Assembly: GCA_019308925.1 (NCBI GenBank)
Contig: JAFDHG010000003.1
Location: forward strand, 3,367 to 67,366
Direction: 5' to 3'
Origin: Deltaproteobacteria bacterium
Lineage (GTDB): Bacteria > Desulfobacterota > B13-G15 > RBG-16-54-18
DNA: 64,000 nucleotides
Position 1 is the stretch's first letter; the number at the start of each line of letters is the position of its first letter. Below, one piece after another: positions 25,517 through 57,775 of the stretch. Made by a program: the position numbers and the translations under genes. The notes under the pieces were generated by a model, which saw only the letters and a program-made list of their open reading frames with translations, searched no databases and was not told the DNA's origin.

Positions 25517-25570
25517 TCCCTTGAGGCCCTTTCAAGGGGACCCTCAATGAGGGTCCCCTTTTTTATGCCA

Positions 25571-26149
25571 TTATCTCAACCCATCTTCACCCTTTATTTC
25601 CTCTTTCTTCAATCCACCAATCCGTGCCAGAGGTCTTCCTGAATCAGTGACCACGATAGCGACCAGTATTTCGTCGTTTTTTGGAGCGTCCGGGATCCGT
25701 ACTTCCATGGCGTCATAGTGGGTACGAACGAAGGCAGCATCCTTAAAGTGAAGGGGGACGTCAATGGGCGTTCCTGCAGTCCCCCGTTTCCCCGCCGAGG
25801 GGATGATGGCCTTACCGCCGCCTACCTGCTCCCGCAGCGGTTTCCCCAACTTGGGGTGCAGGATAGCGTGAAGGTGTTCTAATTCTCCATCAAGGCCTAC
25901 GATTGCCGCCTTTCCGTAGTCTTGGGCCTTTTCCTTCGGGATCCCCAAGGCAGCGACAGCCCGTTCTCCTAACATTGCCCCCAACTGCTCACCGTAATCC
26001 ATGAGTTCAGAGAGATCATCCACGTATTGATTGGCAAAGGGGTTTTTGATCACCGCTATGGCTGCAGCCTTTCGGGTGGGAGGAGATATCTCCTTTTCCC
26101 CTTCCCTTTGGATCTCCTCCACTATGGTGACGACCTTTCTTATCTCCAT
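25571..26149 (-). CDS. Amino-acid-synthesis family protein (PF06684-like), function unknown
   Basis: 192 aa; family assignment by recalled similarity, not verified. Confidence 0.45.
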   Translation of the reverse strand: MEIRKVVTIVEEIQREGEKEISPPTRKAAAIAVIKNPFANQYVDDLSELMDYGEQLGAMLGERAVAALGIPKEKAQDYGKAAIVGLDGELEHLHAILHPKLGKPLREQVGGGKAIIPSAGKRGTAGTPIDVPLHFKDAAFVRTHYDAMEVRIPDAPKNDEILVAIVVTDSGRPLARIGGLKKEEIKGEDGLR

Positions 26150-26152
26150 TGT

Positions 26153-27034
26153 TTACCCCTCCTTATCGAATAAATTTTGGGTTAGGGGGGATAAAAAACC
26201 CTTTATCCCCTGATCCCAGACCACCCTCCCCTGCACACAGATGAGGGCACCTAAGATTACACCCTTATCCATTAGGTGTTGAGCCTTTCCCATACCCCGG
26301 GAGAGGGCCTCATCAACCTCGTGAGACGTGAGTTTTTCCACCTCCAGAGTTACCTCCTCCCCTCGCAGGTCTGTGTCCGGATCAATTTCATCAGCCCGAA
26401 TCCTTTTTACCCTAGGGGAGTCTATCGCCGTGGCATTGGCCACTGATGTGGAGGCCGCGTCGGCTACCGAGGCAGAGGGGCCAAGGACAACGGCCGCCTG
26501 AGCCACCCCCTTGGTGAAGCTCCTTCCTCCCAGACCACTGGTGGTCACTCCCCCCACTCCCATCCCCCCTGTAAGCTGCAGGCAATAGGAGATCTCCGGG
26601 CAGGTTACATCGAGCCTGATCCCCACCCTGACCACCTCTTCTGGGGCCATCCTGATGGCGACATCACCACCGTTGTCGACGATCACCTTGCTGACCCCTT
26701 GGGAGAAGGTATGCTCCGCTACCAGATCGGAGATGGTCCCGGCCACGGCCGACAAAGGAGTAAGGTCCTCATCTCCCACCCGCTGCACAGCACCGACCAT
26801 CTCCTTGACCACCTGGGGAAGGTTTCCATCGGCGCTGAGCCTAGGGGCCTTCTTCTTGATGATCACCTGAAAAGGGGCTAACTCCTTTAACAACCCACAA
26901 GCCCATTCCCCACCCCTTTGGGCTGACTCCAATAACGGTTTACCTCCATCCCAGGCAGCAACCAGCAGGCGCATGGGACCTGACTCCGCCAGGACCCAGG
27001 CATCATTCAACGGGATTACCAATCCTTTGGCCAT
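26153..27034 (-). CDS. UPF0280-family protein (uncharacterised)
   Basis: 293 aa; Gly/Ala-rich; tightly coupled to its neighbours. Confidence 0.45.
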   Translation of the reverse strand: MAKGLVIPLNDAWVLAESGPMRLLVAAWDGGKPLLESAQRGGEWACGLLKELAPFQVIIKKKAPRLSADGNLPQVVKEMVGAVQRVGDEDLTPLSAVAGTISDLVAEHTFSQGVSKVIVDNGGDVAIRMAPEEVVRVGIRLDVTCPEISYCLQLTGGMGVGGVTTSGLGGRSFTKGVAQAAVVLGPSASVADAASTSVANATAIDSPRVKRIRADEIDPDTDLRGEEVTLEVEKLTSHEVDEALSRGMGKAQHLMDKGVILGALICVQGRVVWDQGIKGFLSPLTQNLFDKEG

Positions 27035-28558
27035 TTAGACCATTACCTTCTTCAGGTCTTTTACCACCACGTCAAAAGGCTTCATTGCCTCCTGATGCCC
27101 CCCCATCTCTATGTAGTCATCGTGCCTCATGGTGTACTCTATGGGAGCCACCGTAGCCGGCGTAGGGACCCATGTAAAGGCCCCTCTCTTTACCCGTTCC
27201 ACGTCCACGGCGAAGGTGATTCCGCCTCCTGGAAAGATAAAGGTTGGAGCACCTCCCACGGTGAGACAGGCCTTACAGGCGTGGACTGCCTGGGTGAGTT
27301 TGATGGGGTACTTGGTTACGCCAGCCCTGGCGCTTCCGCCTGCCCCTGCGACGTATATAGCTGATACCCGCGAGGGTTGAGCGGTGTTATTGATGACCCC
27401 CACCGCCCTTTGGGCGGCCGCGGTGAGGGGGATCTCCTCGAACCCCTTCCCATTCCAACGGAACATAGATGCCCGCTCACCGGTGGTCTCCGTGATCAGG
27501 AGGGTCATCCCATCCCAGGCAATTTCCTCGTCGACTCCCGCGATGATCTCAAGAGGATTGGTGATCGAGGTTCCGCCCCATCCATGACCTTGGTCCTGAA
27601 AGTATCTGCCCGGAGTACTCTTCCTGCCACGCAGTTGAATGCCGCTATAGCGCGCGTTAACATATCTTCCGGCAGCATGTTCGGTGAAGAGCCCGGTAAG
27701 GTGAGAGTCGAGGACGATCACCTCGTCTGCTGCTTCCTTAAAGAAGGGGGTGAACAACCCCATGGAGGCACTACCGCAGCCGACCCGCATCTTTTGTATT
27801 ACCTCACCGTCGATCACCGGGGCTTTACCCACCTGCATTTTAAGGGTACTTCCTTTTTTTACTCTCAACTCTACTGGCTCGCGGTTCGCAATTTCAACAA
27901 TGGTGCGTGCTACCGTGAAGCAGTTCTTTCCTGTAAGGAGGTTGGCACCACCGATGGAGAGGATCTTAGAGCCGTACTCCTCTGTAGTTACATGTCCCAC
28001 CTTTCTCCCCTTTATTAAAACGGGAGCACCCTCTTCACCAATGGTCTTATCAGTGTCAATTTTTACCTTGATCCCACTGTAGCTCAGTGGGGCTTCAGTT
28101 ACCACCGTTACGACATCGATTCCATCTGACTTACCCTGGACGATGTAAGGGGCAGGTCGTGCATCAGGGTAGGTAGTCCCTGCTCCAATGGCAGTAATGA
28201 GGGGGCGGCGAATGGCCTCTTCATAGTCGGGGCCGACTATATCCTTGATGTCCGCAAAGGTGTGCAGGGGCACGGTGCGCACCAGTCTCCCATCTTCGTT
28301 TTGGAACCGTTTGCATGCCCCGGTCTTTCCCAAGGCGATTTCGCAACCTATAGGGCAGGCGTCACAGCGAACCCTTCCGGGCAAGGGTTCGGCTTCTTTG
28401 GTGATAGCTTCTTCTGGGCAGACCTTGGCGCAAGTCTGGCAATTGACACAGAGCTTCTGAGAGATGACCGCCTTTTCCTCTATCAGGGAAATGGCTCCCA
28501 GGGGGCAATCCTCCACACACTTGCCGCAGCCTACACACCTTTCAAGATCAACGATCAC
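27035..28558 (-). CDS. Iron-sulfur protein with two N-terminal 4Fe-4S ferredoxin motifs and a large uncharacterised C-terminal domain (candidate 6-hydroxynicotinate reductase-like)
   Basis: CVGCGKCVEDCP and CVNCQTCAKVCP motifs; 507 aa; sits immediately after the enamidase-like gene. Confidence 0.55.
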   Translation of the reverse strand: MIVDLERCVGCGKCVEDCPLGAISLIEEKAVISQKLCVNCQTCAKVCPEEAITKEAEPLPGRVRCDACPIGCEIALGKTGACKRFQNEDGRLVRTVPLHTFADIKDIVGPDYEEAIRRPLITAIGAGTTYPDARPAPYIVQGKSDGIDVVTVVTEAPLSYSGIKVKIDTDKTIGEEGAPVLIKGRKVGHVTTEEYGSKILSIGGANLLTGKNCFTVARTIVEIANREPVELRVKKGSTLKMQVGKAPVIDGEVIQKMRVGCGSASMGLFTPFFKEAADEVIVLDSHLTGLFTEHAAGRYVNARYSGIQLRGRKSTPGRYFQDQGHGWGGTSITNPLEIIAGVDEEIAWDGMTLLITETTGERASMFRWNGKGFEEIPLTAAAQRAVGVINNTAQPSRVSAIYVAGAGGSARAGVTKYPIKLTQAVHACKACLTVGGAPTFIFPGGGITFAVDVERVKRGAFTWVPTPATVAPIEYTMRHDDYIEMGGHQEAMKPFDVVVKDLKKVMV

Positions 28559-28560
28559 CT

Positions 28561-29721
28561 TTACTCCTCTTTACACCGACGTACTGGAGGTGGTGTGTTT
28601 CTGCTGACCCAGGCATTGACCTCTCCGTCCACGAGGACGGCGGCTATACCAGGGATATCACCCGCCTCAATAGCCTCCAGGGCATCCGCTCCCACAGATC
28701 CCATGGGTGTATCCATTACAACGAGGTCTGCCTCATATCCTTCTTTGATCTGTCCGCGATTGAGCTTGTACACCCGGGCAGTATTACCGGTAGCCATGGC
28801 AATGGCCTCCTCGGCCTTGACACTTCCTACAGAAGCGATGAGGTTCAATACGCGCAGGATCCCCAGGGGGATTACCCCCGTACCTGATGGGGCGTCGTTC
28901 CCGATGAGGATCCTTTCAAAGACCCCTTGCTCCCGGGCGATCCTGACGATCTCCAGTGCAACCTTGGGGTTACCGCATTCGACGATCTCAAAGGCGTAGT
29001 TGGTCTCCTTGATGATCCTCTCCGCCTCGGCCAGGGGGACAGCGGTAGGCCCTCCATTGAGGTGGGCCACTACATCCGGACCGGTTGCCATCACCTGATC
29101 GGCTGTCACGGTGGTGCTGCCGGGGATGGAGGTTCCACCCGTGTGCATCATCACCACCATTCCATATTTCTTGGCCAAGCGAACCATAGGAGCGGCATCT
29201 TCCGGTCTTTTCACGGCCCCTAAGCCGATCTCCCCCACATGCGTTACCCCCTCTCGGGCCATCTCCGCAAAGTCCTCCTCACCCAGGCCCGGTTCCAGGA
29301 TGAGGCCACCACCCAACACCTTCACCCCCCCTGGCCGGAAGTTGGCGAAGGCCTTGGCCGCCAGGATGGCCAGGGCCTTGGTCCCTGCAGCATCTCGGGG
29401 TCTGCCAGGGGTGTGGACCTCTCCAGCGGAGATCATCGTGGTGACCCCCCCGTGGAGGGAGCTAGCAATGAAATCGAGCTGTCTCTGCCTGGGGGTGAAG
29501 TCACCGATGACGGGATGGCAGTGTGAGTCGATGAGACCAGGGGCCACCGTCATCCCCCCAACATCGATGACCCTGTCCACATCTGGTGCCTCCAGATCCT
29601 TCCCTTTTCCCAGCCCTTTGATCAGGCCATCCTCGATCAGGATGGCATCGGCCTCCAGGATGGGTTGAGAGAGGTCCCCTGATACCAGTTTGCCTATGTC
29701 TTTGATCAAGAGCTTGCCCAT
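28561..29721 (-). CDS. Amidohydrolase-superfamily enzyme (enamidase-like)
   Basis: 386 aa; metal-binding motifs DSHCHP and MMHTGG; context with the molybdenum hydroxylase and nicotinamidase genes. Confidence 0.65.
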   Translation of the reverse strand: MGKLLIKDIGKLVSGDLSQPILEADAILIEDGLIKGLGKGKDLEAPDVDRVIDVGGMTVAPGLIDSHCHPVIGDFTPRQRQLDFIASSLHGGVTTMISAGEVHTPGRPRDAAGTKALAILAAKAFANFRPGGVKVLGGGLILEPGLGEEDFAEMAREGVTHVGEIGLGAVKRPEDAAPMVRLAKKYGMVVMMHTGGTSIPGSTTVTADQVMATGPDVVAHLNGGPTAVPLAEAERIIKETNYAFEIVECGNPKVALEIVRIAREQGVFERILIGNDAPSGTGVIPLGILRVLNLIASVGSVKAEEAIAMATGNTARVYKLNRGQIKEGYEADLVVMDTPMGSVGADALEAIEAGDIPGIAAVLVDGEVNAWVSRNTPPPVRRCKEE

Positions 29722-29767
29722 TTTGTCCTCCTTTTTGTCGAGCCATGCCTATAATAATCAGAACTAA

Positions 29768-29868
29768 ACCTCGCCTATATAAAATACAGGATTCAAGGGG
29801 TCTAGGATTCAAGGGATCTAGTAAAAATATATTTTAAATCCTGGAATCCTTGACCCCTAAAGCGAGGC
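29768..29868. repeat. Copy B of the dispersed palindromic repeat family
   Basis: cctcgcc...aaaatacaggattcaaggggtctaggattcaagggatctag...ggaatccttgacccct...ggcgagg; terminal inverted repeat cctcgc/gcgagg. Confidence 0.6.
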
Positions 29869-29936
29869 CGAAATATTTTGGGGGCTGAAACATCCTTAAG
29901 CCTTTCAGCATACCGTGATATTTTCAGGGTAACTAT

Positions 29937-30662
29937 CTACAACTTCTTGATCTTATCGATATCGAGTTTATCGAGGATGATCACCCCCGCCCTCTTCATC
30001 TCCACTAGGGCCTTCTTTGAGGTATCTGGGGCCACCCCCCGGCACAACTCCTTGATCACGATCACCTCATAGCCTGCCTTGGCTGCATCAATGGCCGTCG
30101 CTTTCACGCAGTAGTCGGTGGCGATCCCATAGACCACGACCTTCTCGATCCCATTCCGCCTCAGGATGGAGTCCATCTCCGTCTTTTGTCCCCCGTCGTC
30201 CTGAAAGCCGGAGTAGCTGTCGAACCTTTTATCCCTTCCCTTCTGGACGATGGCCAAGAAGAGGTTGTTGTCCACCAAGATCCTGGCGTTTTCTGTCCCC
30301 TGGACGCAGTGCGGGGGCCAGAGGACCTGGGTCCGGTCATCGACCTTGATCACCTCGAAGGGCTTCTTGCCTGGGTGGTTGGTGTAAAAGGAGATATGGT
30401 CCCCTGGATGCCAGTCCTGGGTGGCGAAGGGGATAAAGCCGGCCTTTTTCAACAGCTTGGTGGCATTCCTGACCTTTTCGATAAAGACCTTGTTTGTGCC
30501 CGAGACAGCAAGGGAGCCTTTTTTCCATTCGGTGAAGTCACCCTGGACGTCTACTACGATGGCCCCTATCCTTTTGACAATGGTGGCCTTTTGCCCTGAT
30601 GCGGTCGATGCAACGGTGAAGGCGATCGCTGCCCCCAAGAATAATACCAATACGATCTTCAT
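29937..30662 (-). CDS. pncA: Nicotinamidase/pyrazinamidase (isochorismatase family) with signal peptide
   Basis: VVDVQGDF, DWHPGDHIS metal site, catalytic Cys in PPHCVQGT, and GIATDYCV, all closely parallel M. tuberculosis PncA; N-terminal MKIVLVLFLGAAIAFTVASTASG signal peptide; start set at the second of two RBS+ATG copies. Confidence 0.75.
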   Translation of the reverse strand: MKIVLVLFLGAAIAFTVASTASGQKATIVKRIGAIVVDVQGDFTEWKKGSLAVSGTNKVFIEKVRNATKLLKKAGFIPFATQDWHPGDHISFYTNHPGKKPFEVIKVDDRTQVLWPPHCVQGTENARILVDNNLFLAIVQKGRDKRFDSYSGFQDDGGQKTEMDSILRRNGIEKVVVYGIATDYCVKATAIDAAKAGYEVIVIKELCRGVAPDTSKKALVEMKRAGVIILDKLDIDKIKKL

Positions 30663-30702
30663 TGTCAGACCTCCTCCCTTCATTGTAAGACCTCCTTTTC
30701 TG

Positions 30703-32961
30703 TTAATATCTTTTGTTTGACGATCCCAACTTCCTCCTGGATGCCTCCAGCACCCTCTCCAGGCTGGCCGGCAGGTGATAGATCCTCTCCCCCAGGGCAT
30801 GGGCGATGGCGTTCAGGATGGCCGGGGCGGTGGGGATAAGGGCCGGCTCCCCCACCCCCTTGGCCCCAAAAGGACCGGTGGGTTCTGGATCCTCCACAAT
30901 GATGGGGATGACCTCTGGTATGTCTTTTATCGAAGGGATCAAATAGTCCCGCATGGAACGGGTCTGCCCAGGGACGAACTCCTCCATCAGGGCGAAACCG
31001 ATCCCCATGGCCACACCGCTGGCAATCTGCCCTACCACATTGGAAGGGTTTACGGCCTTCCCCACATCGTGGGCTGCCACCACCCGCAAAACATCCACCT
31101 CGCCAGTAGCAGGGTCCACCTCTACCTCTGCCATCTGGCAGGCGAATGCATAGGTGGCATACGGGATGCCTTGGCCAGTCTCGGCGTCCAGGGTAGTGGT
31201 GGGTGGGTCGAAGAAACCCTCACCCATTAATTTCTTTCCCTCCTGATAGGACCTGGCTGCCACATCCTTCAGGGTGGCAAATATTTCCCCGTCTCTTTGG
31301 GATTTGACCAGCCCGTCCTCCACAGTGAGCTCGTGCGCAGGGACTTTCAGAAATCGGGAGGCCTCCTCCAGGACCAACCCTTTTAACTTGTCTGTCGCCT
31401 CGTACACCGCATTGCCGGAGATATAGGTCTGGCGGCTGGCCGAGGTGGCCCCGGCATCAAGGGTAAGGGCTGTATCCCCCCTAACGAGCCTGATATCCTG
31501 TGTATCTATCCCCATTTCGGAGGCGGCGATCTGGCTGAGCACTGTATCGGAACCCTGGCCGATCTCCGCTGCCCCTGTAAAAAGGGTGAACCTCCCCTGA
31601 TGATCGAGTTCGGCCCGGGCCGAGGCGGGGTTCTTCAACCCTGTATTGCCGATCCCATACCACATGGCCCCGATTCCCTTTCCATAGAGCCTTCCCGGGT
31701 TGGACTTTATCTCCCCCCTATGCTCTTTTACCTGCTGCAGGCACTCCTTGATCCCCACGCTCTCCTTTAGTGTCTGGCCGGTAGCAGTCTCCGAGCCCCG
31801 GTCGAAGGCGTTTAAGAGACGGATCTCAAAGGGGTCCATCCCCAGCTCCTCAGCCAGGATATCCATCTGGGATTCATGGGCGAAGGCCACCTGGGGAACG
31901 CCGAAGCCGCGCATGGCCCCACTGAAGGGATGATTGGTGTAGGCCATTTTACTCTTCACCCTTACATGGGGCACCTGATAAGGACCGGTGGCGTGCACCG
32001 CCGCCCTGCTGGCCACCGCTACCCCATAGGAGGCATAGGCCCCTGTATCCCCCAGGATATCGGCCTCCACGGCCACAAGCCTTCCATCCCGGCGGGCGCC
32101 GGTCTTGTATCTCATGATCAGGGGGTGACGCTTGGCCGTGGCCAGATAGGCCTCCTCTCTTGTGTAGACCAACCGAACCGGACGCCGCAGATGATAGATG
32201 GCCAAGGCGAGGAAACACTGAACGCTGATATCAAGTTTGCTCCCGAACCCCCCTCCAGTGGTCGCCTGGATCACCCTTGCCTGCGATGGTTCTACCCCCA
32301 GGACGGCCACGATCTCCATGTGGTCATAGTGGGGGTTCTGGGTTGATGGGTAGACAGTGATCCTCCCCTCTTCGTCCACCCAGGCCACCCCAGCATCAGG
32401 TTCCAGATAGGTGTGCTCCAGCATAGAGGTTAGATAGGTCCTCTCTATCACCAAGTCGGACTCGGCGAACCCCTGCTCTACATTACCCTTGATGGTGTCA
32501 CGCTGATAGAGGAGGTTCCCTTTTTCGTGGATCAGAGTGGGGGAGCGCAGGGCCTCTTCAGGGTCGAAGATGGGAGGGAGATCTTCATATTCCACTCTAA
32601 TCTCCTCCAAGGTCTGTTCGGCCTCCCTTTCAGTGTGGGCTACTACGAGGGCGATCGGATCTCCTATGAATCTGACTCTGTCTTCGGCCAGCACGTGTTG
32701 ATCCTTGGTTATGGCTATAATTCCGATTTGATTTTTCCCAGGAATGTCTCTATGGGTAAAGATCCTCACCACACCAGGCATCGCTTCAGCCTTCTCGGTG
32801 TGAATCTTTTTTATGCGTGCATGAGGACGATCGCTGCGCAGGACCTTCATGTGAAGGAGTCCCTCCATCTTGAGGTCGGCGGCGAAGAGGGCCTTGCCCA
32901 AGACCTTCTCCATGGTATCCACCCTTGGTATGCTCTCTCCTACCTTGCCCTTAAGCATCAT
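30703..32961 (-). CDS. Molybdenum hydroxylase (xanthine dehydrogenase family) molybdopterin-binding large subunit
   Basis: 752 aa; aldehyde oxidase/xanthine dehydrogenase a/b hammerhead and molybdopterin-binding domains. Confidence 0.85.
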   Translation of the reverse strand: MMLKGKVGESIPRVDTMEKVLGKALFAADLKMEGLLHMKVLRSDRPHARIKKIHTEKAEAMPGVVRIFTHRDIPGKNQIGIIAITKDQHVLAEDRVRFIGDPIALVVAHTEREAEQTLEEIRVEYEDLPPIFDPEEALRSPTLIHEKGNLLYQRDTIKGNVEQGFAESDLVIERTYLTSMLEHTYLEPDAGVAWVDEEGRITVYPSTQNPHYDHMEIVAVLGVEPSQARVIQATTGGGFGSKLDISVQCFLALAIYHLRRPVRLVYTREEAYLATAKRHPLIMRYKTGARRDGRLVAVEADILGDTGAYASYGVAVASRAAVHATGPYQVPHVRVKSKMAYTNHPFSGAMRGFGVPQVAFAHESQMDILAEELGMDPFEIRLLNAFDRGSETATGQTLKESVGIKECLQQVKEHRGEIKSNPGRLYGKGIGAMWYGIGNTGLKNPASARAELDHQGRFTLFTGAAEIGQGSDTVLSQIAASEMGIDTQDIRLVRGDTALTLDAGATSASRQTYISGNAVYEATDKLKGLVLEEASRFLKVPAHELTVEDGLVKSQRDGEIFATLKDVAARSYQEGKKLMGEGFFDPPTTTLDAETGQGIPYATYAFACQMAEVEVDPATGEVDVLRVVAAHDVGKAVNPSNVVGQIASGVAMGIGFALMEEFVPGQTRSMRDYLIPSIKDIPEVIPIIVEDPEPTGPFGAKGVGEPALIPTAPAILNAIAHALGERIYHLPASLERVLEASRRKLGSSNKRY

Positions 32962-33838
32962 GACTTAGATTGAAGACATCCAATAAGGCCTTTTTTACCA
33001 GCCCCTGGACGGCAGGCCTTTTATATTCCGTTGAGGGCCTCACCCCGCTCCTTTTCACCATCTCCTGGGCCACCCTCTGGGCCGCCTCCTCGATCAGGGC
33101 GACGGAGGGTACCTCCTCCCTAAACAAGGCTTCCACCTCCCCCATCCTGCATGGTGTGGGGGTGCAGGAGCCTACTGAGACCCTTACCTCCTTTGCCCTC
33201 CTGCCCTCCACCTTGGCCAGCGCCGCAATATTTATCCTGGCGATGGCCAGGGCCTTTCTCCTGGCCAGCTTGACAAAAGAATGCCTCCATCCATCATCCA
33301 ATTTGGCAAAACTGATCTCCGTCAGGATTTCTTGTGGCTCAATGACCGTTCTATAAGGACCGAGATAGAGATCAGTTATCGGAAGGGTCCTCTCTCCTCC
33401 CTTTCGTTGTAGAGTCACCTTGGCCCCCAGGACCACTAGGGCAGGGATGGTATCGGCGGCAGGGGAGGCATTGACGATATTCCCTCCGATGGTCCCCATG
33501 TTTCTGATCTGGGGAGAGCCCACGTTTTGGGCGGCCCTTCCCAGGATATCTCCCCCCTCCTTGATCAACCCGGAGGAGGCGAGCTCAGCATGGTTGATGA
33601 GGGGACCTAGACAGATCTGATCCCCCTCCTCCCTGACAAACCTCAGCTCAGGGATGCGAGTGATATCCACCAGGAAATCTGCCCCCAGCTTTCCCTCCCT
33701 GATCTCTGTCATCAGGTCGGTCCCTCCGGCGATCACCCGGGCCCTTTCTCCGTTATCCTTTAGTATCTCTAAGGCCTCCCCCAGAGAGCTTGGACAGATG
33801 TATGCGAACTCAGACCTCACCCTTTTTACCGCTCCCAC
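32951..33838 (-). CDS. Molybdenum hydroxylase FAD-binding medium subunit (CoxM/XdhA-like)
   Basis: 295 aa; FAD_binding_5-type motif GGTDL. Confidence 0.8.
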   Translation of the reverse strand: MGAVKRVRSEFAYICPSSLGEALEILKDNGERARVIAGGTDLMTEIREGKLGADFLVDITRIPELRFVREEGDQICLGPLINHAELASSGLIKEGGDILGRAAQNVGSPQIRNMGTIGGNIVNASPAADTIPALVVLGAKVTLQRKGGERTLPITDLYLGPYRTVIEPQEILTEISFAKLDDGWRHSFVKLARRKALAIARINIAALAKVEGRRAKEVRVSVGSCTPTPCRMGEVEALFREEVPSVALIEEAAQRVAQEMVKRSGVRPSTEYKRPAVQGLVKKALLDVFNLSHDA

Positions 33839-34316
33839 TGGCCTTGATGGCCTTCACGACCTGCAAGTAACCGGTACAACGACAGAGGTTGCCGGAGATG
33901 GCCTCCTCGATCTCCTCCTTGGATGGTTGGGGGTTTTCATCAAGGAGGGCCTTGGCCGCCATGATCATCCCGGGGGTGCAGAAGCCGCACTGAACGGCCC
34001 CATGGTTGAGAAAGGCCTCCTGCAATGGGTGCAGTTTCCCCTCCTGTCCGATCCCCTCAATGGTGATGATCTCCCTTCCATCTATTTTGGGGGCCAAGAC
34101 GAGGCAGGCATATACCGGTCTTCCATTCAGCAGGACCGTACACGCCCCACATTCCCCTATCCCGCACCCCTCCTTGGTCCCTGTGAGGCCGAGTTCGTCC
34201 CTGAGGAGTTCCAACAGGGTGAGGTTAGAAGGGATCTCCAGTTCTTTATCTTGGCCGTTTATTTTTAACCTTACCCTTACCTTCTGGACAGGCATCATCC
34301 CCTCACAAGGAAGCAA
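33810..34316 (-). CDS. Molybdenum hydroxylase [2Fe-2S] small subunit (CoxS-like)
   Basis: [11 protein letters not shown] and CGFCTPG cluster motifs; true start probably an internal Met (MMPVQKV). Confidence 0.85.
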
Positions 34317-34319
34317 TCT

Positions 34320-35627
34320 TTACCGTAGCATCATTCCAGGAAGTAAAAGGGCAATCTTAGGAAAGACCGTTATGATTGCGACTATCACGAATATTGATAT
34401 TAAAAAAGGCATTGCACCACGGAAGATCTCTTCCACTGGCGTATCCTTTGCTACCCCAGCAACGGTAAATATATTTAGTCCCATGGGCGGGGTGATCAAT
34501 CCTGCCTCCATCATGAGCACTGCGATTACCCCAAACCAGATGGGGTCAAACCCCAGCGCCAATATCACCGGGAAAATTACCGGCAGCGTCAGCACCATCA
34601 TTGAGATTGCGTCTAAAAAGCAGCCCAGGAAAAGGTATGAAACGACTATGATGGCGAGGATGACATATGGGGATACTTCAAGCCCGGCTACCCAAATTGC
34701 CACCTTCATGGGTATCGTGGACAGAGCTAGAAAATAACTGAAGACATTAGCCCCGGCAACAAGGAAGAGAACCATTACAGAAATCCGGACGGCCTCCTCC
34801 AAAGAGGCGAAGAGATTATGCCAGGTTAGTTTCCTTTTGACAAAAGCAGTCAAGAAAAGGGCAGTAGCCCCCATCGCTCCAGCCTCAGTGGGGGTAAAAA
34901 AGCCCAGATATATGCCACCCATTACCACCAAAAAGATTGCCAACGGTTCCCATATACCTCTGAGTGCTATGAATTTCTCTCTCCAGGTAACCGATTCAGG
35001 ACTGGCTGGGGCTAAACTGGGGTTCATTTTGACCTGGAGCACTACGATAGCTATATAGGCTGCCGCCAGAATGATTCCAGGAAGCATGCCAGCGATCAGG
35101 AGTTTTCCGATAGACTGCTCAGTGAGCATACCATAGACCACAAAGCCGATGCTCGGCGGGATAAGAAAACCCAGGGTACCGCCCGCGGCAATACTCCCTG
35201 TCGCAAGCCTCGGGTGATAGTTAAAGCGCTTCATTTCCGGAAGAGCAACGGTCCCCATAGTGGCTGCCGTCGCCACGGAAGATCCCGAGACAGCAGCAAA
35301 CCCGGCACAGGCACCAATTGTTGCAATCCCCAGCCCCCCGGGCAACTTTCGAAACCACTTGTCAAAGGTTCCATACAAGTCTTGAGTCATCCCGGAGCTA
35401 CCGGCAAACCCTCCCATAACAATAAAAAGTGGGATGACCGTGTATGGGTAATGATAGGCAACTTCATAGACTGTCCGAGCGGTTACTGGTAGCGCTGCCC
35501 CTATGGACGCCAAATAACTAAGTCCCAAGAAACCCACAAGCATCAAAGCAAAGGCTATGGGCATACCAAGGAATAGCAGAAAGAATACTAAAAACGTTCC
35601 GATGATACCTACAATTACTGGATCCAA
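34320..35627 (-). CDS. dctM: TRAP transporter large permease
   Basis: 435-aa polytopic protein with DctM-family architecture. Confidence 0.8.
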   Translation of the reverse strand: MDPVIVGIIGTFLVFFLLFLGMPIAFALMLVGFLGLSYLASIGAALPVTARTVYEVAYHYPYTVIPLFIVMGGFAGSSGMTQDLYGTFDKWFRKLPGGLGIATIGACAGFAAVSGSSVATAATMGTVALPEMKRFNYHPRLATGSIAAGGTLGFLIPPSIGFVVYGMLTEQSIGKLLIAGMLPGIILAAAYIAIVVLQVKMNPSLAPASPESVTWREKFIALRGIWEPLAIFLVVMGGIYLGFFTPTEAGAMGATALFLTAFVKRKLTWHNLFASLEEAVRISVMVLFLVAGANVFSYFLALSTIPMKVAIWVAGLEVSPYVILAIIVVSYLFLGCFLDAISMMVLTLPVIFPVILALGFDPIWFGVIAVLMMEAGLITPPMGLNIFTVAGVAKDTPVEEIFRGAMPFLISIFVIVAIITVFPKIALLLPGMMLR

Positions 35628-35629
35628 GG

Positions 35630-36118
35630 TTATTTCCTTACCAGCTTTCCTACAGAAGTTGAAAGGTCAATCAAGAGTTCCAGGCAGAGGAAGACAGCCG
35701 CTACGGCGACAAGCAACCTGAAGGGTAGCTGGGGGATTCTCAGCATGTCTGAAACGGTTCGTTCCTCGATTCCTACCACCCAACCCTGCCATGCTAGAAT
35801 AGAAATTATGAACAGGCTGAGAAGGGTGGTCATTACATCCAGGATTAGCCCCATCCGTTCGGGGAGTCGAGATACAAGCATCGATACGCGAACATGCCCT
35901 TTCACCTGGTGCGTGTACGCAACGCCCAAGAGGATAAATATTACGAGCATGTAACTGGATAGCTCGACCGCGCCAGGGATAGGCCGGGTCCATAAGACCC
36001 GGCCTATCACATCACCGGCAGTGAGCAACATCATCGGGATGAGCAGACACATGCCCACTGAACATAGGTAAAGGTTTATGCGTTGTATCCCCTTCTTGAT
36101 CGTGGTCAACCACCCCAT
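35630..36118 (-). CDS. dctQ: TRAP transporter small permease
   Basis: 162 aa, four transmembrane helices, immediately upstream of dctM. Confidence 0.75.
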   Translation of the reverse strand: MGWLTTIKKGIQRINLYLCSVGMCLLIPMMLLTAGDVIGRVLWTRPIPGAVELSSYMLVIFILLGVAYTHQVKGHVRVSMLVSRLPERMGLILDVMTTLLSLFIISILAWQGWVVGIEERTVSDMLRIPQLPFRLLVAVAAVFLCLELLIDLSTSVGKLVRK

Positions 36119-36144
36119 TTTTCATTATCCTAGCAAGGTGATTA

Positions 36145-37206
36145 CTACTTCCATTCGGGCGGGCATGCTACGCACTTTACACCCCTCTTTTTGCATTCCT
36201 CGTTGTACATCTTCACTGCCTTTTTTGCCGGAAGGCCCTTCTTCTCCAAATCTGCCGCCCACTTCCTCGTCATATCCTGAAATCTTGCGTACCAGCGATT
36301 CTCCTCTTTTTTAGGTAGGTAATAGAGTTTCACCCCTTTGTTAGCGATCTCCTTCATCATGACCTTGTAGACGTCTACAGTTAATCCCCCGGTGGTGCGG
36401 AAGGGATTTGAGCATACTTCCTCTATGATAGGCTTTAGGTCGTCTGGTGTCCTCTCCCAGCTCTTTTGGTTCATTATTACACCTTCGGTCACACAACCAA
36501 AAGTGGCGATCGTCCCATATTTTGCTACCTCATAGAGTTTGAAGGCGAGGACCAGTGGTGGGCAGGTAACGAGCCCGTCTACGGTACCTGTCTCCATAGC
36601 CAGATAGACATCACCAAGGGGCATGAATACCGGCTCCGCCCCTAGTGCCTTGATATAATTCGTTTGGTGACCCCCCGGGGTCCTTATTCTGAGTCCTTTG
36701 CAATCCTCCAGGGTACGCACAGGCTTCGTAGTCCATAATGAGGCTTTGATGCATCCGTTTAATTCGATCATTTTCACGCCGGGGAATTCTCGCTTCAGGA
36801 TGCGCTTATACATAGCATTGCCAATGTCAACGCCGATGTCTTTGCCATTTACCCAGACAGCCAGCGAGAGCACATCGCTGAGAGGAAAGCGTCCCGGTGT
36901 CCAGGTCGCGGTAAAATAGCCCATATCAGAGAGTCCCTTCGCCACTATATCGTAATGCTCTGCTCCTTTGCCCAGGGCGCCGCCGGCGTACAGGGTGTAG
37001 GTTATGCGGCCATTACTCCTCTTTTTCAGCTCCTCAAGCATCGGTATCCAAACAGTCTTCACCTCTCTGCTAACAGGAGGGTGCCAGGTGCTAAATTTTA
37101 TATGCATTGTCTTCTGTGGCTCTGCCACCGACCTCGTACTAACAGCCAACAATAGACTGGCTGCTAGCACAACCACTAGAGAAACTAAAAATATCTTCTT
37201 TTTCAT
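36145..37206 (-). CDS. dctP: TRAP transporter substrate-binding protein
   Basis: Start set at MKKKIFLV (signal peptide); LAMETGTVDG-type motif. Confidence 0.8.
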   Translation of the reverse strand: MKKKIFLVSLVVVLAASLLLAVSTRSVAEPQKTMHIKFSTWHPPVSREVKTVWIPMLEELKKRSNGRITYTLYAGGALGKGAEHYDIVAKGLSDMGYFTATWTPGRFPLSDVLSLAVWVNGKDIGVDIGNAMYKRILKREFPGVKMIELNGCIKASLWTTKPVRTLEDCKGLRIRTPGGHQTNYIKALGAEPVFMPLGDVYLAMETGTVDGLVTCPPLVLAFKLYEVAKYGTIATFGCVTEGVIMNQKSWERTPDDLKPIIEEVCSNPFRTTGGLTVDVYKVMMKEIANKGVKLYYLPKKEENRWYARFQDMTRKWAADLEKKGLPAKKAVKMYNEECKKRGVKCVACPPEWK

Positions 37207-37339
37207 CTTTTCCCTCCTTTTGGTTGTAGGTTGGTCCTTCAGTGGGGAAAGGCACAAAAATGGACATCACCTCCCTTCATGCCCGACTTCCCCCCTTTGC
37301 CTGTGTCATGCATGAAGCCCATAAACTTATCTCTACTTT

Positions 37340-37888
37340 CTACCATGTAGGAGGACTTACCACCCAGACTACCACCGTCTCCTCATTTGTGGGGTTGATC
37401 CAGCTGTGAGGTATCTGGGAGGAGTAGTAGAAGCTTTCATTTTCCTTTATCTGATAGCGGGTGCCATCGAGGTTTATCTCCAGTACCCCCTTGAGGACTA
37501 TGCCGAACTCCTCTCCCTCATGGTTGTAAAGGCCCAAAGCCCCTCCTCCTGGCTTGATCACCGTGTAGAAGGGCTGCATCCTCTTCCCCTGGGTGCTCTT
37601 GACCAGGAGGTTGATCTTCGCCTTCCACCTCTTTATGGAGATCTCCACCCTCTCCCCTTCTCGCATCACCACGGATTCAGAGTTATTAGGGGGGAGAAAG
37701 AAGTCCACAATGTTTACCCTGAGGACATTGGCTACATGTTTCAATGTGGCTATGGAGGGGGAGACCTTTCCTCTTTCCACCTGGGAGATAAAGGAAGGAG
37801 AGCAATTTACCCTTTGGGCCAATTCCTTTAATGTCAACCCCCTTTCCTTTCTTAAGGCCCGAATTTTTTGTCCTATATCCTCTATCAT
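37340..37888 (-). CDS. XRE-family transcriptional regulator with C-terminal cupin domain
   Basis: HTH_3 motif (LRKERGLTLKELAQRVNCSPSFISQVERG) plus cupin. Confidence 0.8.
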   Translation of the reverse strand: MIEDIGQKIRALRKERGLTLKELAQRVNCSPSFISQVERGKVSPSIATLKHVANVLRVNIVDFFLPPNNSESVVMREGERVEISIKRWKAKINLLVKSTQGKRMQPFYTVIKPGGGALGLYNHEGEEFGIVLKGVLEINLDGTRYQIKENESFYYSSQIPHSWINPTNEETVVVWVVSPPTW

Positions 37889-37996
37889 AATTAAATTAGT
37901 AATGAATTTTTTGTTTTTATAATTAAATAAATATCACCGAAAAGGTTACCTGTCAATGAGAGATTTCCCTATTAGCATGTTTTTTCGAACCGTCCT

Positions 37997-39487
37997 TCAA
38001 ACCCAACGTAAGGTGACCGTCTTCTGGTCCATGAACAGCCTTACAGAGTCCATCCTGCTATGGGCATTTCCGAAGAAGGACTCCCTCTTGGACGCCATTG
38101 GGAAAAAGGAGTATGGTTGTGGTATACCCAAATTCACCCCCACGTTTCCTACGTTGACCTCTCTTGTAAACTTTCGCGCATTTTTACCGTCCGCCGTAAG
38201 GATGCATGCTGAGTGTCCAAGGTTTGTCTTGGTGTTGATCCACTCTATTGCTTCATCGAGATTGCTGGCCCTTATCAGGTTGGCAACAGGGCCAAATGCC
38301 TCCTCTTTCGCAATGTGCATGTCAGGGTGGACATCTCCCAGGATGGTGGGACCGAGGAAATAGCCATTAGGATAGTCCTTTACCTTGACCTCTCTGCCAT
38401 CCAGTGCGATCTTAGCCCCTTCCTTTAAACCCTTCTCTATCCACTGAAGGACCTTTTCTTTCCCCATTTGTGTGGTCATAGGCCCGAGGTCCGTATCTTC
38501 GTCAAGTCCATAACCCAGTTTCATGCCCGCAGAGGCCTCTACAAACTTGCTCTTCACCTCATCGTATACATCTCCCACGATAACCACGTTGTCAGTACCC
38601 AGGCAGCGTTGGCCGGTCATACCATAGCATCCCCTCAGAAGGTACTCAATCCCTCTGTCTATGTCGGCATCTGGCATGATAACGATATGATTCTTTCCAT
38701 TACCGTTCAAGGATGTCCTCTTCCCCAGTTTTCCCGCTTGGTCGAACAGTATTTTGCTGACTGCTGTCGACCCTATAAACCCGGCTCCCTGCACATAGGG
38801 ATGGGCGAACATCGTGGCATTGAGCTCTACCTGATTCCCCACATGAATGAGATTATGTACGCCAGGAGGGAAACCGGCCTCCTCAACCACCTCGGTGATC
38901 TTATTGGCGCAGACAGGACCCTGCCAGCTTGGGCTCCAAACTACAGGACATCCGCAGGCAAGGGCATATGGGACAAAGGACGACCAGGCATGCATGGGGA
39001 TGTTTCCTGGTGTAATGATGAGGAAGACCCCCACTGGTTCCCATACTAGATATTCGTCAATACCCCTGGCCAACTGATCCACATGTTCGTTCTCCCTTGC
39101 TAACCTGTACAGGGCTGAGCAAGCCGATTCGATATTCTCAATAACCCTTCTCACAGACCCTCTGGATTCATCTATGGTCCTTCCGTGATCTTGGGTGAGA
39201 ACGCGACTGAGTTCGTCGAAATATTCATCAAACTTGCCCCTGAGGTCGAAGAGTAAACGGGCCCTATCCCGCAGGGGGAGATTGCTCCATGTCTTAAAAG
39301 CCCTGTATGCTGCCTCAACTGCCGCATCGGCCTCTTCCTGTGTTGCCGTAGGGAACTCTGCGATCACCTCACCTATAGCAGGATTGGTGGTCTGATTAAT
39401 GGTGGTGGACTTGGAGTCAACCCACTTGCCGTCGATGAAGAATTTTAACCTTCCATAATGCTTGCTGACTTCAGATAGTAACGCCAT
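37997..39487 (-). CDS. Aldehyde dehydrogenase, CoA-acylating methylmalonate-semialdehyde dehydrogenase-like
   Basis: 496 aa; FIDGKWV N-terminus and Aldedh-family layout. Confidence 0.8.
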   Translation of the reverse strand: MALLSEVSKHYGRLKFFIDGKWVDSKSTTINQTTNPAIGEVIAEFPTATQEEADAAVEAAYRAFKTWSNLPLRDRARLLFDLRGKFDEYFDELSRVLTQDHGRTIDESRGSVRRVIENIESACSALYRLARENEHVDQLARGIDEYLVWEPVGVFLIITPGNIPMHAWSSFVPYALACGCPVVWSPSWQGPVCANKITEVVEEAGFPPGVHNLIHVGNQVELNATMFAHPYVQGAGFIGSTAVSKILFDQAGKLGKRTSLNGNGKNHIVIMPDADIDRGIEYLLRGCYGMTGQRCLGTDNVVIVGDVYDEVKSKFVEASAGMKLGYGLDEDTDLGPMTTQMGKEKVLQWIEKGLKEGAKIALDGREVKVKDYPNGYFLGPTILGDVHPDMHIAKEEAFGPVANLIRASNLDEAIEWINTKTNLGHSACILTADGKNARKFTREVNVGNVGVNLGIPQPYSFFPMASKRESFFGNAHSRMDSVRLFMDQKTVTLRWV

Positions 39488-40015
39488 CCTAACCTCCTTT
39501 TCTAGTTTTTGATCTGACCAATGTCTTATTTTATTAAAAATTAATTTTTTATTTTATTTCTTAAAAACATCCTATTATTACCACTCGAAAAATTACGTGT
39601 CAACGGTTTTGTGCCAATGCCTCGGGAATAAATGCGGCAAAGGCTTAATGAAGGCAGTATTGAGTTTGTTGAGTGTACACGGTGAATGGGTGAATTGCTG
39701 CTGATAACTGACAGATGAATCCTTGGACCATTTTTAGCAACTTTTTTGGAGAAGAACCATAATATGTTCCTGTCGGTTAGATGTCATTCGTCGAGGTTGA
39801 CAAAAATTGTCACATCGACATCTTTTGATCCTTTGTCGTTTTTCCCATCATTGAGAAATCCTTTTGATTTTGCTCAGTTGTGTTACAATAAGGTGCTAAC
39901 CTTTTTAAAGGCACAAAATTTGCGATAAAAAGATCAGAGAGGTATAAGTGATAGGGTCTGCAAATAGGATAATCTTTTGGAGGGGCCTAACGCAGGTATT
40001 TTTTATCAAAAGCTC

Positions 40016-45116: not shown

Positions 45117-45290
45117 AGGGTTCAAGGGGCCACGGGTTCTAGGGTTCAAGTGTTTATGCATTCATGGGGTTAATCACTCGACCCCTTGAATCCTGCCGCC
45201 AGCGGCATCCCGCTTCCTTAAATCTATATTGTGGGGCGGGATTGAATCCTTGACCCCTCAGTCCCGCCCTTGGCGGGGCAGTTTACTTTT
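45117..45290. repeat. Copy C of the dispersed palindromic repeat family, with an embedded terminator-like hairpin
   Basis: aagggttcaaggggccacgggttctagggttcaag ... cactcgaccccttgaatcc ... ggattgaatccttgacccct; hairpin cccgcc-cttg-gcgggg followed by cagtttacttttt. Confidence 0.55.
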
Positions 45291-47202: not shown

Positions 47203-47278
47203 CCCATGTCCCCTTTTGCCAAAGTGTATGTCACCAGCCTCAGCTATGTCAAGCAAAGGGATATGTCTATGAGAGGTT

Positions 47279-57113: not shown

Positions 57114-57172
57114 ATGAGATGAATTCTCGGGCCCCTTTTAGAATCTTCTTGGCGAGGAATCAGAATTTAAAA

Positions 57173-57775
57173 ATGTCAAAGGTACCCTCAATCTATATAT
57201 CCGCCCTCCTGCTGGCAGCGGGGGAGGGGGAGAGGATGAGGGGGATCAAACAGCTCCTCCCCCTGGGGGAGAAGAGCATGGTGGAGGCATCGCTGGATAA
57301 TCTCCAGGCCTCCCAGGTCGATGAGATCATCGTGGTCCTGGGTTTTGCGGCCGAGCGGATCCTCCCCTTACTGAAAGGTAAGGAACGGGTCAAGGTAGTG
57401 ATAAATCCCTCCTTTCTGGGGGGGATGAGTACCTCCATGCACTATGGGCTGAGGGTCATAGACCCCCAAAGCAAGGGGGTCCTTATCGCCCTGGCCGATC
57501 AACCCTTCATCCCCCCGGAGGTGGTAGACCTCCTCATTGAGAGGTTTGCCGAGGGTAGCAAGGGGATCGTGCTGCCAGTATATCAGGGCCGGAGGGGGCA
57601 CCCGGTGATCTTGGACAGGGAGAGGTATGAGGGGGAGCTCTTTGGGCTGCGGGGGGATGTAGGCGGCAGGGAGATCGTGAAAAGTCACCCAGAGGATGTC
57701 CTGGAGGTGGAGGTATTCTCATCAGGGGTGGTGTTGGATATTGATGATTGGGAGGAGTATAAAGAGTTTACATAG
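57173..57775 (+). CDS. MobA/MocA-like nucleotidyltransferase (molybdenum cofactor nucleotidylation family)
   Basis: ALLLAAGEGERMRG.KQLLPL NTP-transferase motif; start set at MSKVP. Confidence 0.65.
   Translation: MSKVPSIYISALLLAAGEGERMRGIKQLLPLGEKSMVEASLDNLQASQVDEIIVVLGFAAERILPLLKGKERVKVVINPSFLGGMSTSMHYGLRVIDPQSKGVLIALADQPFIPPEVVDLLIERFAEGSKGIVLPVYQGRRGHPVILDRERYEGELFGLRGDVGGREIVKSHPEDVLEVEVFSSGVVLDIDDWEEYKEFT

Follow-up and report, generated by a model that had tools for sequence, protein, structure and literature searches.

Nicotinate and nicotinamide occur wherever cells are, which makes their turnover under anaerobic conditions relevant to sediments and to the gut. To our knowledge, the route of Eubacterium barkeri is the only one worked out at the enzyme level. 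Its nicotinate fermentation cluster reportedly encodes Ndh, Hnr, Ena, Hgd, Hmd, Mgm, Mii, Dmd and Dml, and genes for the first three enzymes (ndh-hnr-ena) are said to occur in nine Proteobacteria. Here we describe a related cluster of 13 genes at positions 25571–39487 of a 64,000-nucleotide stretch of DNA (the window) from an uncultured Deltaproteobacteria bacterium of the Desulfobacterota that resembles sulfate reducers (assembly GCA_019308925.1, contig JAFDHG010000003.1, positions 3,367 to 67,366). In our assessment, this region very probably constitutes one operon for the uptake of nicotinamide and nicotinate and their catabolism by an anaerobic-type pathway.

The core Ndh-Hnr-Ena pathway has been known since 2006 and Hnr is already named in the public annotation of relatives, so the cluster is not a new kind of system. 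In E. barkeri, the molybdopterin (Mo) subunit of nicotinate dehydrogenase (Ndh) is split into NdhL and NdhM, and the enzyme contains a labile selenium ligand. 6-Hydroxynicotinate reductase (Hnr, EC 1.3.7.1) carries out the ferredoxin-dependent reduction of 6-hydroxynicotinate, and enamidase (Ena) converts 1,4,5,6-tetrahydro-6-oxonicotinate to 2-formylglutarate and NH3. The window shares these first three enzymes with E. barkeri, but is without Hgd, Hmd, Mgm, Mii, Dmd and Dml, and has instead an aldehyde dehydrogenase (ALDH) resembling methylmalonate-semialdehyde dehydrogenase (MMSDH). Its variant features are a fused Mo subunit, an added exported nicotinamidase (PncA), an added tripartite ATP-independent periplasmic (TRAP) importer, a putative exit through glutaryl-CoA, and the inclusion of a UPF0280 and an AA_synth protein as members of the catabolic module; an XRE-cupin regulator is also added.

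The lower part of the pathway proposed for the window is more like that of Azorhizobium caulinodans, which reportedly converts nicotinate via 6-hydroxynicotinate, tetrahydro-6-oxonicotinate and 2-formylglutarate to glutarate/glutaryl-CoA. The two would have the same upper part and an exit at the level of glutarate rather than the B12-mutase route. Their lineages are also alike in being proteobacterial or deltaproteobacterial. They differ in that the window comes from an anaerobe-type Desulfobacterota metagenome-assembled genome (MAG) with proposed periplasmic deamidation and TRAP uptake. The enzyme that follows 2-formylglutarate is not known to have been assigned in A. caulinodans, whereas the window offers a syntenic, MMSDH-like candidate. 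The genes of the predicted catabolic pathway are as follows, in order of transcription.

37997–39487, minus strand: MMSDH-like, CoA-acylating ALDH, 496 aa (Aldedh domain; best NCBIfam model TIGR01722, MMSDH)
33810–34316, minus strand: NdhS-like [2Fe-2S] small subunit (Fer2 and Fer2_2 domains)
32951–33838, minus strand: NdhF-like FAD subunit (FAD_binding_5 and CO_deh_flav_C domains)
30703–32961, minus strand: Ndh-like molybdopterin subunit, fused, 752 aa (Ald_Xan_dh_C and MoCoBD_1/2 domains; best PDB matches 3HRD_A/B)
28561–29721, minus strand: predicted enamidase (Ena), 386 aa (Amidohydro_1 domain)
27035–28558, minus strand: probable Hnr ortholog, 507 aa (two N-terminal Fer4 motifs; homologs named 6-hydroxynicotinate reductase)
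26153–27034, minus strand: UPF0280/ApbE-like protein, 293 aa (NF003322 UPF0280; weak ApbE match)
25571–26149, minus strand: AA_synth/DUF1185 protein, 192 aa (PF06684)

In the pathway that we propose, exported PncA would deamidate nicotinamide outside the cytoplasm, and the TRAP transporter would bring in nicotinate. The Mo/FAD/[2Fe-2S] nicotinate dehydrogenase would convert nicotinate to 6-hydroxynicotinate, the ferredoxin-type FeS flavoenzyme Hnr would reduce this to 1,4,5,6-tetrahydro-6-oxonicotinate, and enamidase would open the ring to give 2-formylglutarate and NH3. The MMSDH-like ALDH would then oxidatively decarboxylate 2-formylglutarate to glutaryl-CoA and CO2, replacing the reduction/B12-mutase route of E. 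barkeri, with glutaryl-CoA handled elsewhere in the genome. UPF0280 would attach or insert the covalent flavin of Hnr, and AA_synth would handle the enamine/imine intermediate or 2-formylglutarate at the enamidase step. The predicted identities of Ena, Ndh, Hnr, PncA, the TRAP importer and the MMSDH-like ALDH rest on homology and synteny, while we infer the substrates of the TRAP importer and the ALDH and the roles of UPF0280 and AA_synth.

Alignment of the 386-aa amidohydrolase with E. barkeri enamidase (2VUN) shows 60% identity over 384/386 residues (residues 1–384, E = 6.7e-146); the next-best PDB matches, dihydroorotase and hydantoinase, reach only ~1e-7. Residues H67, H69, E164, H193, H220 and D276 (2VUN numbering), which we take to be the binuclear-metal ligands of the amidohydrolase superfamily, are identical in the pairwise alignment. 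Homology and synteny support its assignment as an enamidase (EC 3.5.2.18). This bears out an earlier interpretation of the window from its letters and open reading frames (ORFs) (hereafter the sequence-only reading), which had likened the protein to enamidase. None of the three outcomes that this reading gave as refuting it was seen: clustering of the amidohydrolase with dihydroorotase or hydantoinase clades, grouping of the large Mo subunit with CO dehydrogenase or xanthine dehydrogenase, or a lack of co-occurrence of the genes in other genomes. The same reading had described tightly spaced minus-strand genes of given families, in agreement with the coordinates, the gaps and the Pfam and NCBIfam scans of the window proteins from which our domain calls derive.

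The xanthine-dehydrogenase-family hydroxylase encoded nearby had likewise been taken for nicotinate dehydrogenase, and its Mo subunit agrees with this. Its best PDB matches are 3HRD_A (residues 8–418, 430 bits) and 3HRD_B (residues 426–739, 282 bits). In these pairwise PDB scores the two halves surpass every full-length relative: 4-hydroxybenzoyl-CoA reductase reaches 396 bits, xanthine dehydrogenase ~270 bits and CO dehydrogenase at most ~258 bits. NdhS and NdhF are uninformative as to the family member, since the 3HRD chains are only their second-best PDB matches (3HRD_D, E = 1e-52, for NdhS; 3HRD_C, practically level with the first match, for NdhF). The window has no split NdhL/NdhM of the E. 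barkeri type: its Mo subunit is a single fused protein, an arrangement seen in most loci outside Bacillota. The split is a lineage trait, not needed for activity. Together with the synteny described below, this homology supports the assignment of the Mo/FAD/[2Fe-2S] enzyme as a nicotinate dehydrogenase.

The 507-aa FeS protein, placed by the sequence-only reading where Hnr would be expected and yet counted there among the uncharacterised genes, is by homology an Hnr, and its family already carries that name. The family is very large (more than 8000 clusters at 90% identity were scored), and several members carry the name 6-hydroxynicotinate reductase in NCBI and JGI records. Identity is 54% between the window protein and the Hnr encoded in a complete barkeri-type cluster of Acetobacterium bakii. 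The enamidase loci surveyed here do not include E. barkeri, for whose Hnr that of A. bakii served as the stand-in in our comparisons. The Ena proteins of these two species share 83% identity, and a protein from a Eubacterium sp. MAG named 6-hydroxynicotinate reductase is 87% identical to A. bakii Hnr. E. barkeri Hnr was reportedly purified in 2006 and found to hold its flavin covalently, together with two [4Fe-4S] clusters and one [2Fe-2S] cluster. The invariant cysteines of the family comprise two [4Fe-4S] motifs (C8/11/14/18 and C37/40/43/47) and an additional four-cysteine motif (C65/C68/C72/C82), which fits this reported set of cofactors. An AlphaFold2 (AF2) model of Hnr (pLDDT 84) matches PDB folds in Foldseek over the ferredoxin domain only; the confidently predicted catalytic part (~370 aa, residues ~135–500) gave no Foldseek match in the PDB. 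The invariant Ser/Thr residues that are candidates for flavin attachment are T122, S159, S263, S314, T330, T358 and S409; of these, T122 and S409 fall in two low-confidence loops of the model, 99–131 and 407–410.

We surveyed 80 enamidase loci, found by a scan with an enamidase alignment and limited to one genome per species, in which the 13 window proteins were searched by tblastn. These loci (numbered L in the text) span Bacillota, Desulfobacterota, Alphaproteobacteria, Acidobacteriota, Chloroflexota, Acidimicrobiia, Armatimonadota, Methylomirabilia and one Archaeoglobi MAG. NdhS is syntenic with enamidase in 52/80 loci and the Mo subunit in 54/80. Of the 45 well-flanked loci, with at least 5 kb on either side of Ena, 41 carry AA_synth, 39 NdhLM, 31 Hnr and 29 UPF0280. 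No locus has UPF0280 without Hnr. Eight loci appeared to have Hnr only; in three of these a divergent UPF0280 comes immediately after Hnr, and in the other five the contig stops at Hnr, indicating that UPF0280 follows Hnr wherever the DNA exists. AA_synth adjoins Ena or UPF0280 in 53 of the 65 loci that carry it. The Ena-Hnr-UPF0280-AA_synth set is therefore a conserved module, and the arrangement is far beyond chance, as dozens of unrelated genomes hold these genes side by side. Two contexts anchored on Hnr rather than Ena, in Clostridium sp. DL-VIII and on a JGI contig, both contain the block Ena-Hnr-"AbpE_bact"-AA_synth. The A. bakii cluster, with the full barkeri-type pathway (Hnr-UPF0280-MCP-Hgd-NdhF-NdhS-NdhL-NdhM-Ena-AA_synth-Mgm-Mii-MutL-like-Dml-?-DmdA-DmdB), likewise holds both UPF0280 and AA_synth.

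The loci without Hnr separate the parts of this module. A luciferase-like (PF00296) oxidoreductase gene lies beside Ena/AA_synth in 12 loci, all of them without Hnr, and in no Hnr locus. These loci belong to Chloroflexota, Acidimicrobiia and Methylomirabilia and have neither Hnr nor UPF0280.

L054:11182–12165, L066:8370–9365, L047, L053, L055, L057–L059, L061, L062, L065 and L067: luciferase-like oxidoreductase gene

The luciferase-like gene is a candidate for a non-orthologous replacement of the reductase step, that is, for a 6-hydroxynicotinate reductase, plausibly F420- or FMN-dependent in Chloroflexota and Acidimicrobiia. Such a replacement would make Hnr and UPF0280 one replaceable unit and link AA_synth to the enamidase, not to the reductase. 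The conservation of the FeS-UPF0280-AA_synth trio with enamidase in other genomes, which the sequence-only reading had left to be checked, is thus strong. Of the function it hoped to assign to the trio, one part was obtained, the identification of Hnr; UPF0280 and AA_synth gain a pathway context and not a demonstrated function.

For UPF0280, we propose a role as a flavin transferase or maturation factor for the covalent flavin of Hnr. This proposal follows from the covalent nature of the flavin reported for E. barkeri Hnr, from the ability of ApbE-family enzymes to attach FMN covalently to Ser/Thr, and from the way UPF0280 comes and goes with Hnr. The AF2 model of UPF0280 (pLDDT 91.6, from a 69-sequence alignment) matched DVU1097 (2O34) and ~39 ApbE/Ftp/FmnB chains in a Foldseek search of the PDB, all with probability 1.0, and nothing else below E = 0.7. 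In a sequence profile search of the PDB, V. cholerae ApbE was reached with no better than E = 0.14 across 38 residues, a match too weak for mapping of the active-site residues onto ApbE. Invariant across phyla are G122-G123-D124, S166-G167, R171, D192 and T196 of UPF0280, and its D192-x3-T196 motif presumably resembles the Mg2+ site of ApbE. While the fold is common to the UPF0280 model and the ApbE/Ftp/FmnB transferases, the window protein is cytoplasmic and not a lipoprotein, and has "VAGT" in place of the ApbE "IAKG" motif with its lysine. Its putative target also differs from theirs, in that Hnr has no FMN_bind domain. An identical UPF0280 protein is on record at NCBI for a MAG labelled "Deltaproteobacteria bacterium" (locus tags JRI46_). 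Our literature search found nothing relevant that links UPF0280, DUF375 or ApbE to 6-hydroxynicotinate.

AA_synth matches PF06684 over the entire profile (positions 1–175 of 175; 241 bits, cut-off 27), with 2QTP (E = 4.5e-72) and 3BYQ as its PDB matches. Crystal structures of two DUF1185 proteins, BB2672 and SPO0826, show a fold like that of Bacillus chorismate mutase and left the function unknown; the link of the family to amino acid synthesis was argued from adjacent genes for branched-chain amino acid (BCAA)-type ABC transporters (PMC2954203). BCAA-type ABC transporter genes also flank nicotinate clusters among the loci surveyed here. In the trigonelline pathway of Acinetobacter baylyi, the DUF1185 protein TgnF is described as stimulating succinate-semialdehyde dehydrogenase (Perchat et al. 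2018, as cited in PMC7913881); this indirect effect was the only functional report on DUF1185 that we found. TgnF and the window protein belong to the same family and both occur in catabolic clusters for pyridine carboxylates, trigonelline being N-methylnicotinate. The two pathways are also alike in their chemistry: a ring-derived amide is hydrolysed to an enamine and on to a 2-formyl-dicarboxylate, which feeds an aldehyde dehydrogenase. They differ in that TgnF is reported only to stimulate succinate-semialdehyde dehydrogenase, whereas AA_synth of the window type is tied to enamidase, whichever the exit enzyme.

With low confidence, we place AA_synth at the enamidase step, where it may act on the enamine/imine or on the labile 2-formylglutarate, because it is kept with Ena under either reductase (Hnr or luciferase-like) and either exit (Hgd or ALDH). 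Its effect could be to accelerate enamine/imine hydrolysis, or to stabilise or pass on an aldehyde prone to racemisation and decarboxylation. In one Acidobacteriota locus (L075:7899–9123), a tandem pair of AA_synth paralogs, with 65% and 50% identity to that of the window, separates Ena from UPF0280.

These roles compete with a different explanation, which we regard as doubtful though it deserves serious attention: UPF0280, AA_synth or both may be subunits of an Hnr complex, or a FAD pyrophosphatase or flavin chaperone, rather than a transferase of covalent flavin and a helper of enamidase. In favour of this, UPF0280 strictly adjoins Hnr, and with gaps of 0–3 nt the two are probably translationally coupled; AA_synth follows directly 3′ of UPF0280 in 22 loci; and according to PDB titles some ApbE-family proteins are FAD pyrophosphatases. 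Against it, AA_synth lies directly upstream of Ena in 13 of the 14 well-flanked loci without Hnr, and it is retained there without UPF0280 as well, so it cannot be an obligate subunit of Hnr. A further point against it is that E. barkeri Hnr was reportedly purified as a single polypeptide. Attachment of the flavin to Hnr by UPF0280 is proposed as the most economical reading.

The ALDH is the candidate for the last step. Its ten best PDB matches are all methylmalonate-semialdehyde dehydrogenases (E ~1e-97), with the next family at 1e-62. The catalytic cysteine is present (GQRCLG, aligned with GERCMA), and the segment "SLNGNGKNH" aligns with "ALGGAKNH" of 5TJR and 4ZZ7 in place of the ELGGK general-base segment of hydrolytic ALDHs. 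MmsA/IolA (1T90, 4ZZ7, 5TJR) is thus the best-matching family by a wide margin, with the catalytic cysteine and the MMSDH-type segment in common. The substrates of MmsA/IolA have a methyl group or a hydrogen as side chain, whereas the substrate proposed for the window enzyme has a 2-carboxyethyl group. Chemically, 2-formylglutarate is one of the 2-substituted malonate semialdehydes, and a reaction of the MMSDH type on it would yield glutaryl-CoA and CO2, in line with the glutarate-level continuation described physiologically for Azorhizobium. From this chemistry and the synteny, the ALDH is proposed to convert 2-formylglutarate, CoA and NAD+ to glutaryl-CoA and CO2.

Twelve loci, from Desulfobacterota, Bacillota and Armatimonadota, carry a homolog of the ALDH (58–70% identity) among the Ena/Hnr genes or next to them, as does L083. 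In L032 and L083 this homolog immediately precedes Ena, and in L027 it is placed between the genes for UPF0280 and AA_synth. A barkeri-type Hgd, 2-(hydroxymethyl)glutarate dehydrogenase, is found in 18 other loci, and at the thresholds used the two enzymes never share a locus; in L027 the ALDH is accompanied by a short HIBADH-family ORF. This distribution supports the view that the MMSDH-like ALDH and the barkeri-type Hgd are alternative exits, in keeping with the different exit from 2-formylglutarate suggested by the sequence-only reading.

The ALDH, the regulator and the TRAP genes could instead form an unrelated unit, for malonate or methylmalonate semialdehyde derived from beta-alanine, valine or inositol, with 2-formylglutarate leaving by another way. 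The generic MMSDH-like character of the ALDH would suit such a unit, as would the GC content (47–51% in the 34–40 kb part of the cluster, 55–57% in the ndh-ena-hnr part) and the 108-nt gap and regulator gene that separate the ALDH from the rest. We consider it improbable, given that the ALDH homologs accompany Ena/Hnr genes in three phyla in the absence of a full barkeri-type Hgd, and that TRAP homologs 53–75% identical to those of the window accompany the cluster in 8 loci.

The genes for the predicted uptake, deamidation and regulation functions are interspersed with the catabolic genes.

37340–37888, minus strand: XRE-family HTH and cupin regulator, 182 aa (HTH_3 and Cupin_2 domains; PuuR-like)
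36145–37206, minus strand (ORF to 37257 from an upstream TTG): TRAP subunit DctP, with signal peptide (PF03480, 132 bits)
35630–36118, minus strand: TRAP small membrane subunit DctQ (PF04290)
34320–35627, minus strand: TRAP large membrane subunit DctM (PF06808, 335 bits)
29937–30683, minus strand (start at 30683 or 30662): exported PncA nicotinamidase (Isochorismatase domain; Sec signal peptide)

PncA scores 167.3 bits over its full length against the nicotinamidase/pyrazinamidase model NF008623 (cut-off 174) and shows the D, DWHxxxH, K and C residues of the family (VVDVQGDF, QDWHPGDH, ATDYCV). Its start region (MKIVLVLFLGAAIAFTVASTASG followed by QKA) is a Sec-type signal peptide, preceded by a duplicated GGAGG-N8-ATG; the sequence-only reading had likewise noted a signal-peptide PncA with intact motifs. 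The duplication, at 30650–30700 on the minus strand, is a near-duplicate unit, AAAGGAGGTCTTACAATGAAG / GGAGGAGGTCTGACAATGAAG, giving two in-frame starts 21 nt apart, each a ribosome-binding site with an ATG, and a signal peptide results from either. Cluster-linked PncA occurs in few loci, in Desulfobacterota only, and has a signal peptide in all of them (L034, L037, L044). These signals suggest periplasmic deamidation of nicotinamide, followed by import of the nicotinate formed.

DctP homologs (53–75% identity) occur in 8 enamidase loci, TRAP homologs as a whole accompany the cluster in 8–9, and homologs of the regulator occur (41–73% identity) in 7 enamidase loci and L083. Other loci have BCAA-type ABC, MFS, SSF or other transporters instead of TRAP, and such swapping of transporters is usual for catabolic clusters.

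Although PncA-type enzymes also hydrolyse pyrazinamide (as the NCBIfam model name indicates), NdhS and NdhF do not separate family members, and the relatives of the TRAP proteins do not indicate a ligand, we judge it very unlikely that paralogs of the nicotinate enzymes here degrade another N-heterocyclic carboxylate or amide (pyrazinamide/pyrazinoate, isonicotinate, picolinate or 6-chloronicotinate), in view of the full-length similarity of Ena to the sole characterised enamidase, the resemblance of Hnr to that of a complete barkeri-type nicotinate cluster, the closeness of the Mo subunit to Ndh, and the retention of the module across phyla with known downstream nicotinate genes.

Several points weigh against the nicotinate pathway and the roles proposed within it. 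The organism is an uncultured MAG. The window Hnr is tied to E. barkeri Hnr indirectly, through the A. bakii stand-in and the names of its homologs. A canonical [S/T]GA[S/T] flavinylation motif, the usual target of ApbE/Ftp/FmnB transferases, is not evident in Hnr. UPF0280 scores 19.8 bits against PF02424 ApbE, short of the gathering threshold of 25.6, and its homologs are filed under the precomputed Pfam family PF27030 "AbpE_bact" (many under PF02424 too); for these reasons we call it ApbE-like rather than ApbE. E. barkeri enamidase reportedly performs the two hydrolytic steps unaided, which leaves no strict need for AA_synth, and L081, the locus of the closest relative (Hnr 82% identical), is without AA_synth beside UPF0280.

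For the exit and the uptake, the adverse points are of a similar kind. The ALDH reaches 402.7 bits against TIGR01722, below the cut-off of 448.5 (the next family scores 296), and is only ~40% identical to MmsA/IolA; the model's rule therefore does not assign methylmalonate semialdehyde as its substrate, and the enzyme probably belongs to a distinct MMSDH-like subfamily. A search of the window and of the flanks sampled, those of the ALDH-type loci included, turned up no gene for glutaryl-CoA dehydrogenase or another glutaryl-CoA-metabolising enzyme; the neighbours there are regulators, transporters and MTTB-family genes. The PDB matches of DctP are TRAP solute-binding proteins only (best E = 4.5e-25), with no close relative that informs on the ligand.

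Taken jointly, flavinylation of Hnr by UPF0280, handling of the enamidase product by AA_synth and formation of glutaryl-CoA by the MMSDH-like ALDH, as the missing genetic basis of the glutarate branch, make up a tentative proposal whose parts may well not all hold. If true, a role for UPF0280 as maturation factor of the Hnr flavin would add a new cytoplasmic protein to the targets of ApbE-type flavinylation, DUF1185/AA_synth would shift from "amino-acid synthesis" to the ring-opening chemistry of N-heterocycles, and an MMSDH-like enzyme would be proposed for the as yet unassigned step from 2-formylglutarate to glutaryl-CoA. The upper pathway Ndh-Hnr-Ena occurs in at least seven phyla and is an assembly of interchangeable parts: two kinds of reductase, one of them the luciferase-like candidate, two alternative exits and transporters of several kinds. 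No new principle is involved; several "hypothetical" labels in databases become directly testable proposals.

All 13 ORFs lie on the minus strand with short or negative intergenic distances and are transcribed in the order ALDH, HTH_3+Cupin_2 regulator, DctP, DctQ, DctM, NdhS, NdhF, Mo subunit, PncA, Ena, Hnr, UPF0280, AA_synth. The gaps are 2 nt between Ena and Hnr, 0 nt between Hnr and UPF0280 and 3 nt between UPF0280 and AA_synth, and the Ndh subunit genes overlap one another; the widest are 215 nt between PncA and Ena and the 108 nt between the ALDH and the regulator. Scans with Rfam and for tRNA found no riboswitch or other RNA element in the cluster. Two sites matching consensus signals bracket the genes.

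39574–39603, minus strand: promoter-like site upstream of the first gene (TTGACA-18-AATAAT, 11/12 matches; consensus match only)
25534–25560: terminator-like hairpin, 11 nt past the AA_synth stop (12-bp stem with 8 GC pairs, T-run; consensus match only)

The hairpin is likely the 3′ end of the operon. The cluster may be a horizontally acquired island, a reading neither favoured nor disfavoured by the GC content, which is uneven over the whole window, and by the flanking genes, which are housekeeping genes (SecA, ArgJ, SelB, M23 peptidase).

In L081 (CP070817.1), from the closest relative with a long contig, a DctM-Ndh-PncA-Ena-Hnr-UPF0280 block is situated in a chromosomal context unlike that of the window, among genes for glycosyltransferases, Maf and argininosuccinate lyase. 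DctM is shortened there, a cupin gene follows UPF0280, and the ALDH, DctPQ and AA_synth are not nearby. This context suggests that the module moves or decays between close lineages.

Genes of the MttB superfamily, intact ORFs with no in-frame stop, lie beside the clusters in five Desulfobacterota and Bacillota loci (L050:19193–20638, L051, L043:1714–3162, L023:10967–12460 and L029), and in L050 the MttB-type gene is joined by a second TRAP set; the window has no MttB-superfamily gene. The MttB-type genes may encode anaerobic demethylases of trigonelline that feed nicotinate into the pathway.

The sequence-only reading had also suggested that a MocA-like gene elsewhere in the window supplies the molybdopterin cytosine dinucleotide (MCD) cofactor. 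This gene (57119–57775) encodes a MobA-like NTP transferase, and we rejected its link to the cluster, a homolog being near enamidase in only 2/80 loci. The gene for the selenocysteine elongation factor SelB (45283–47298, minus strand) is 6 kb from the cluster, whose genes have no apparent in-frame TGA. The selenium of E. barkeri Ndh is presumably not selenocysteine, so a link between SelB and the cluster is not supported. Elsewhere in the window, positions 12960–18530 on the minus strand are occupied by a single ORF of 1856 aa.

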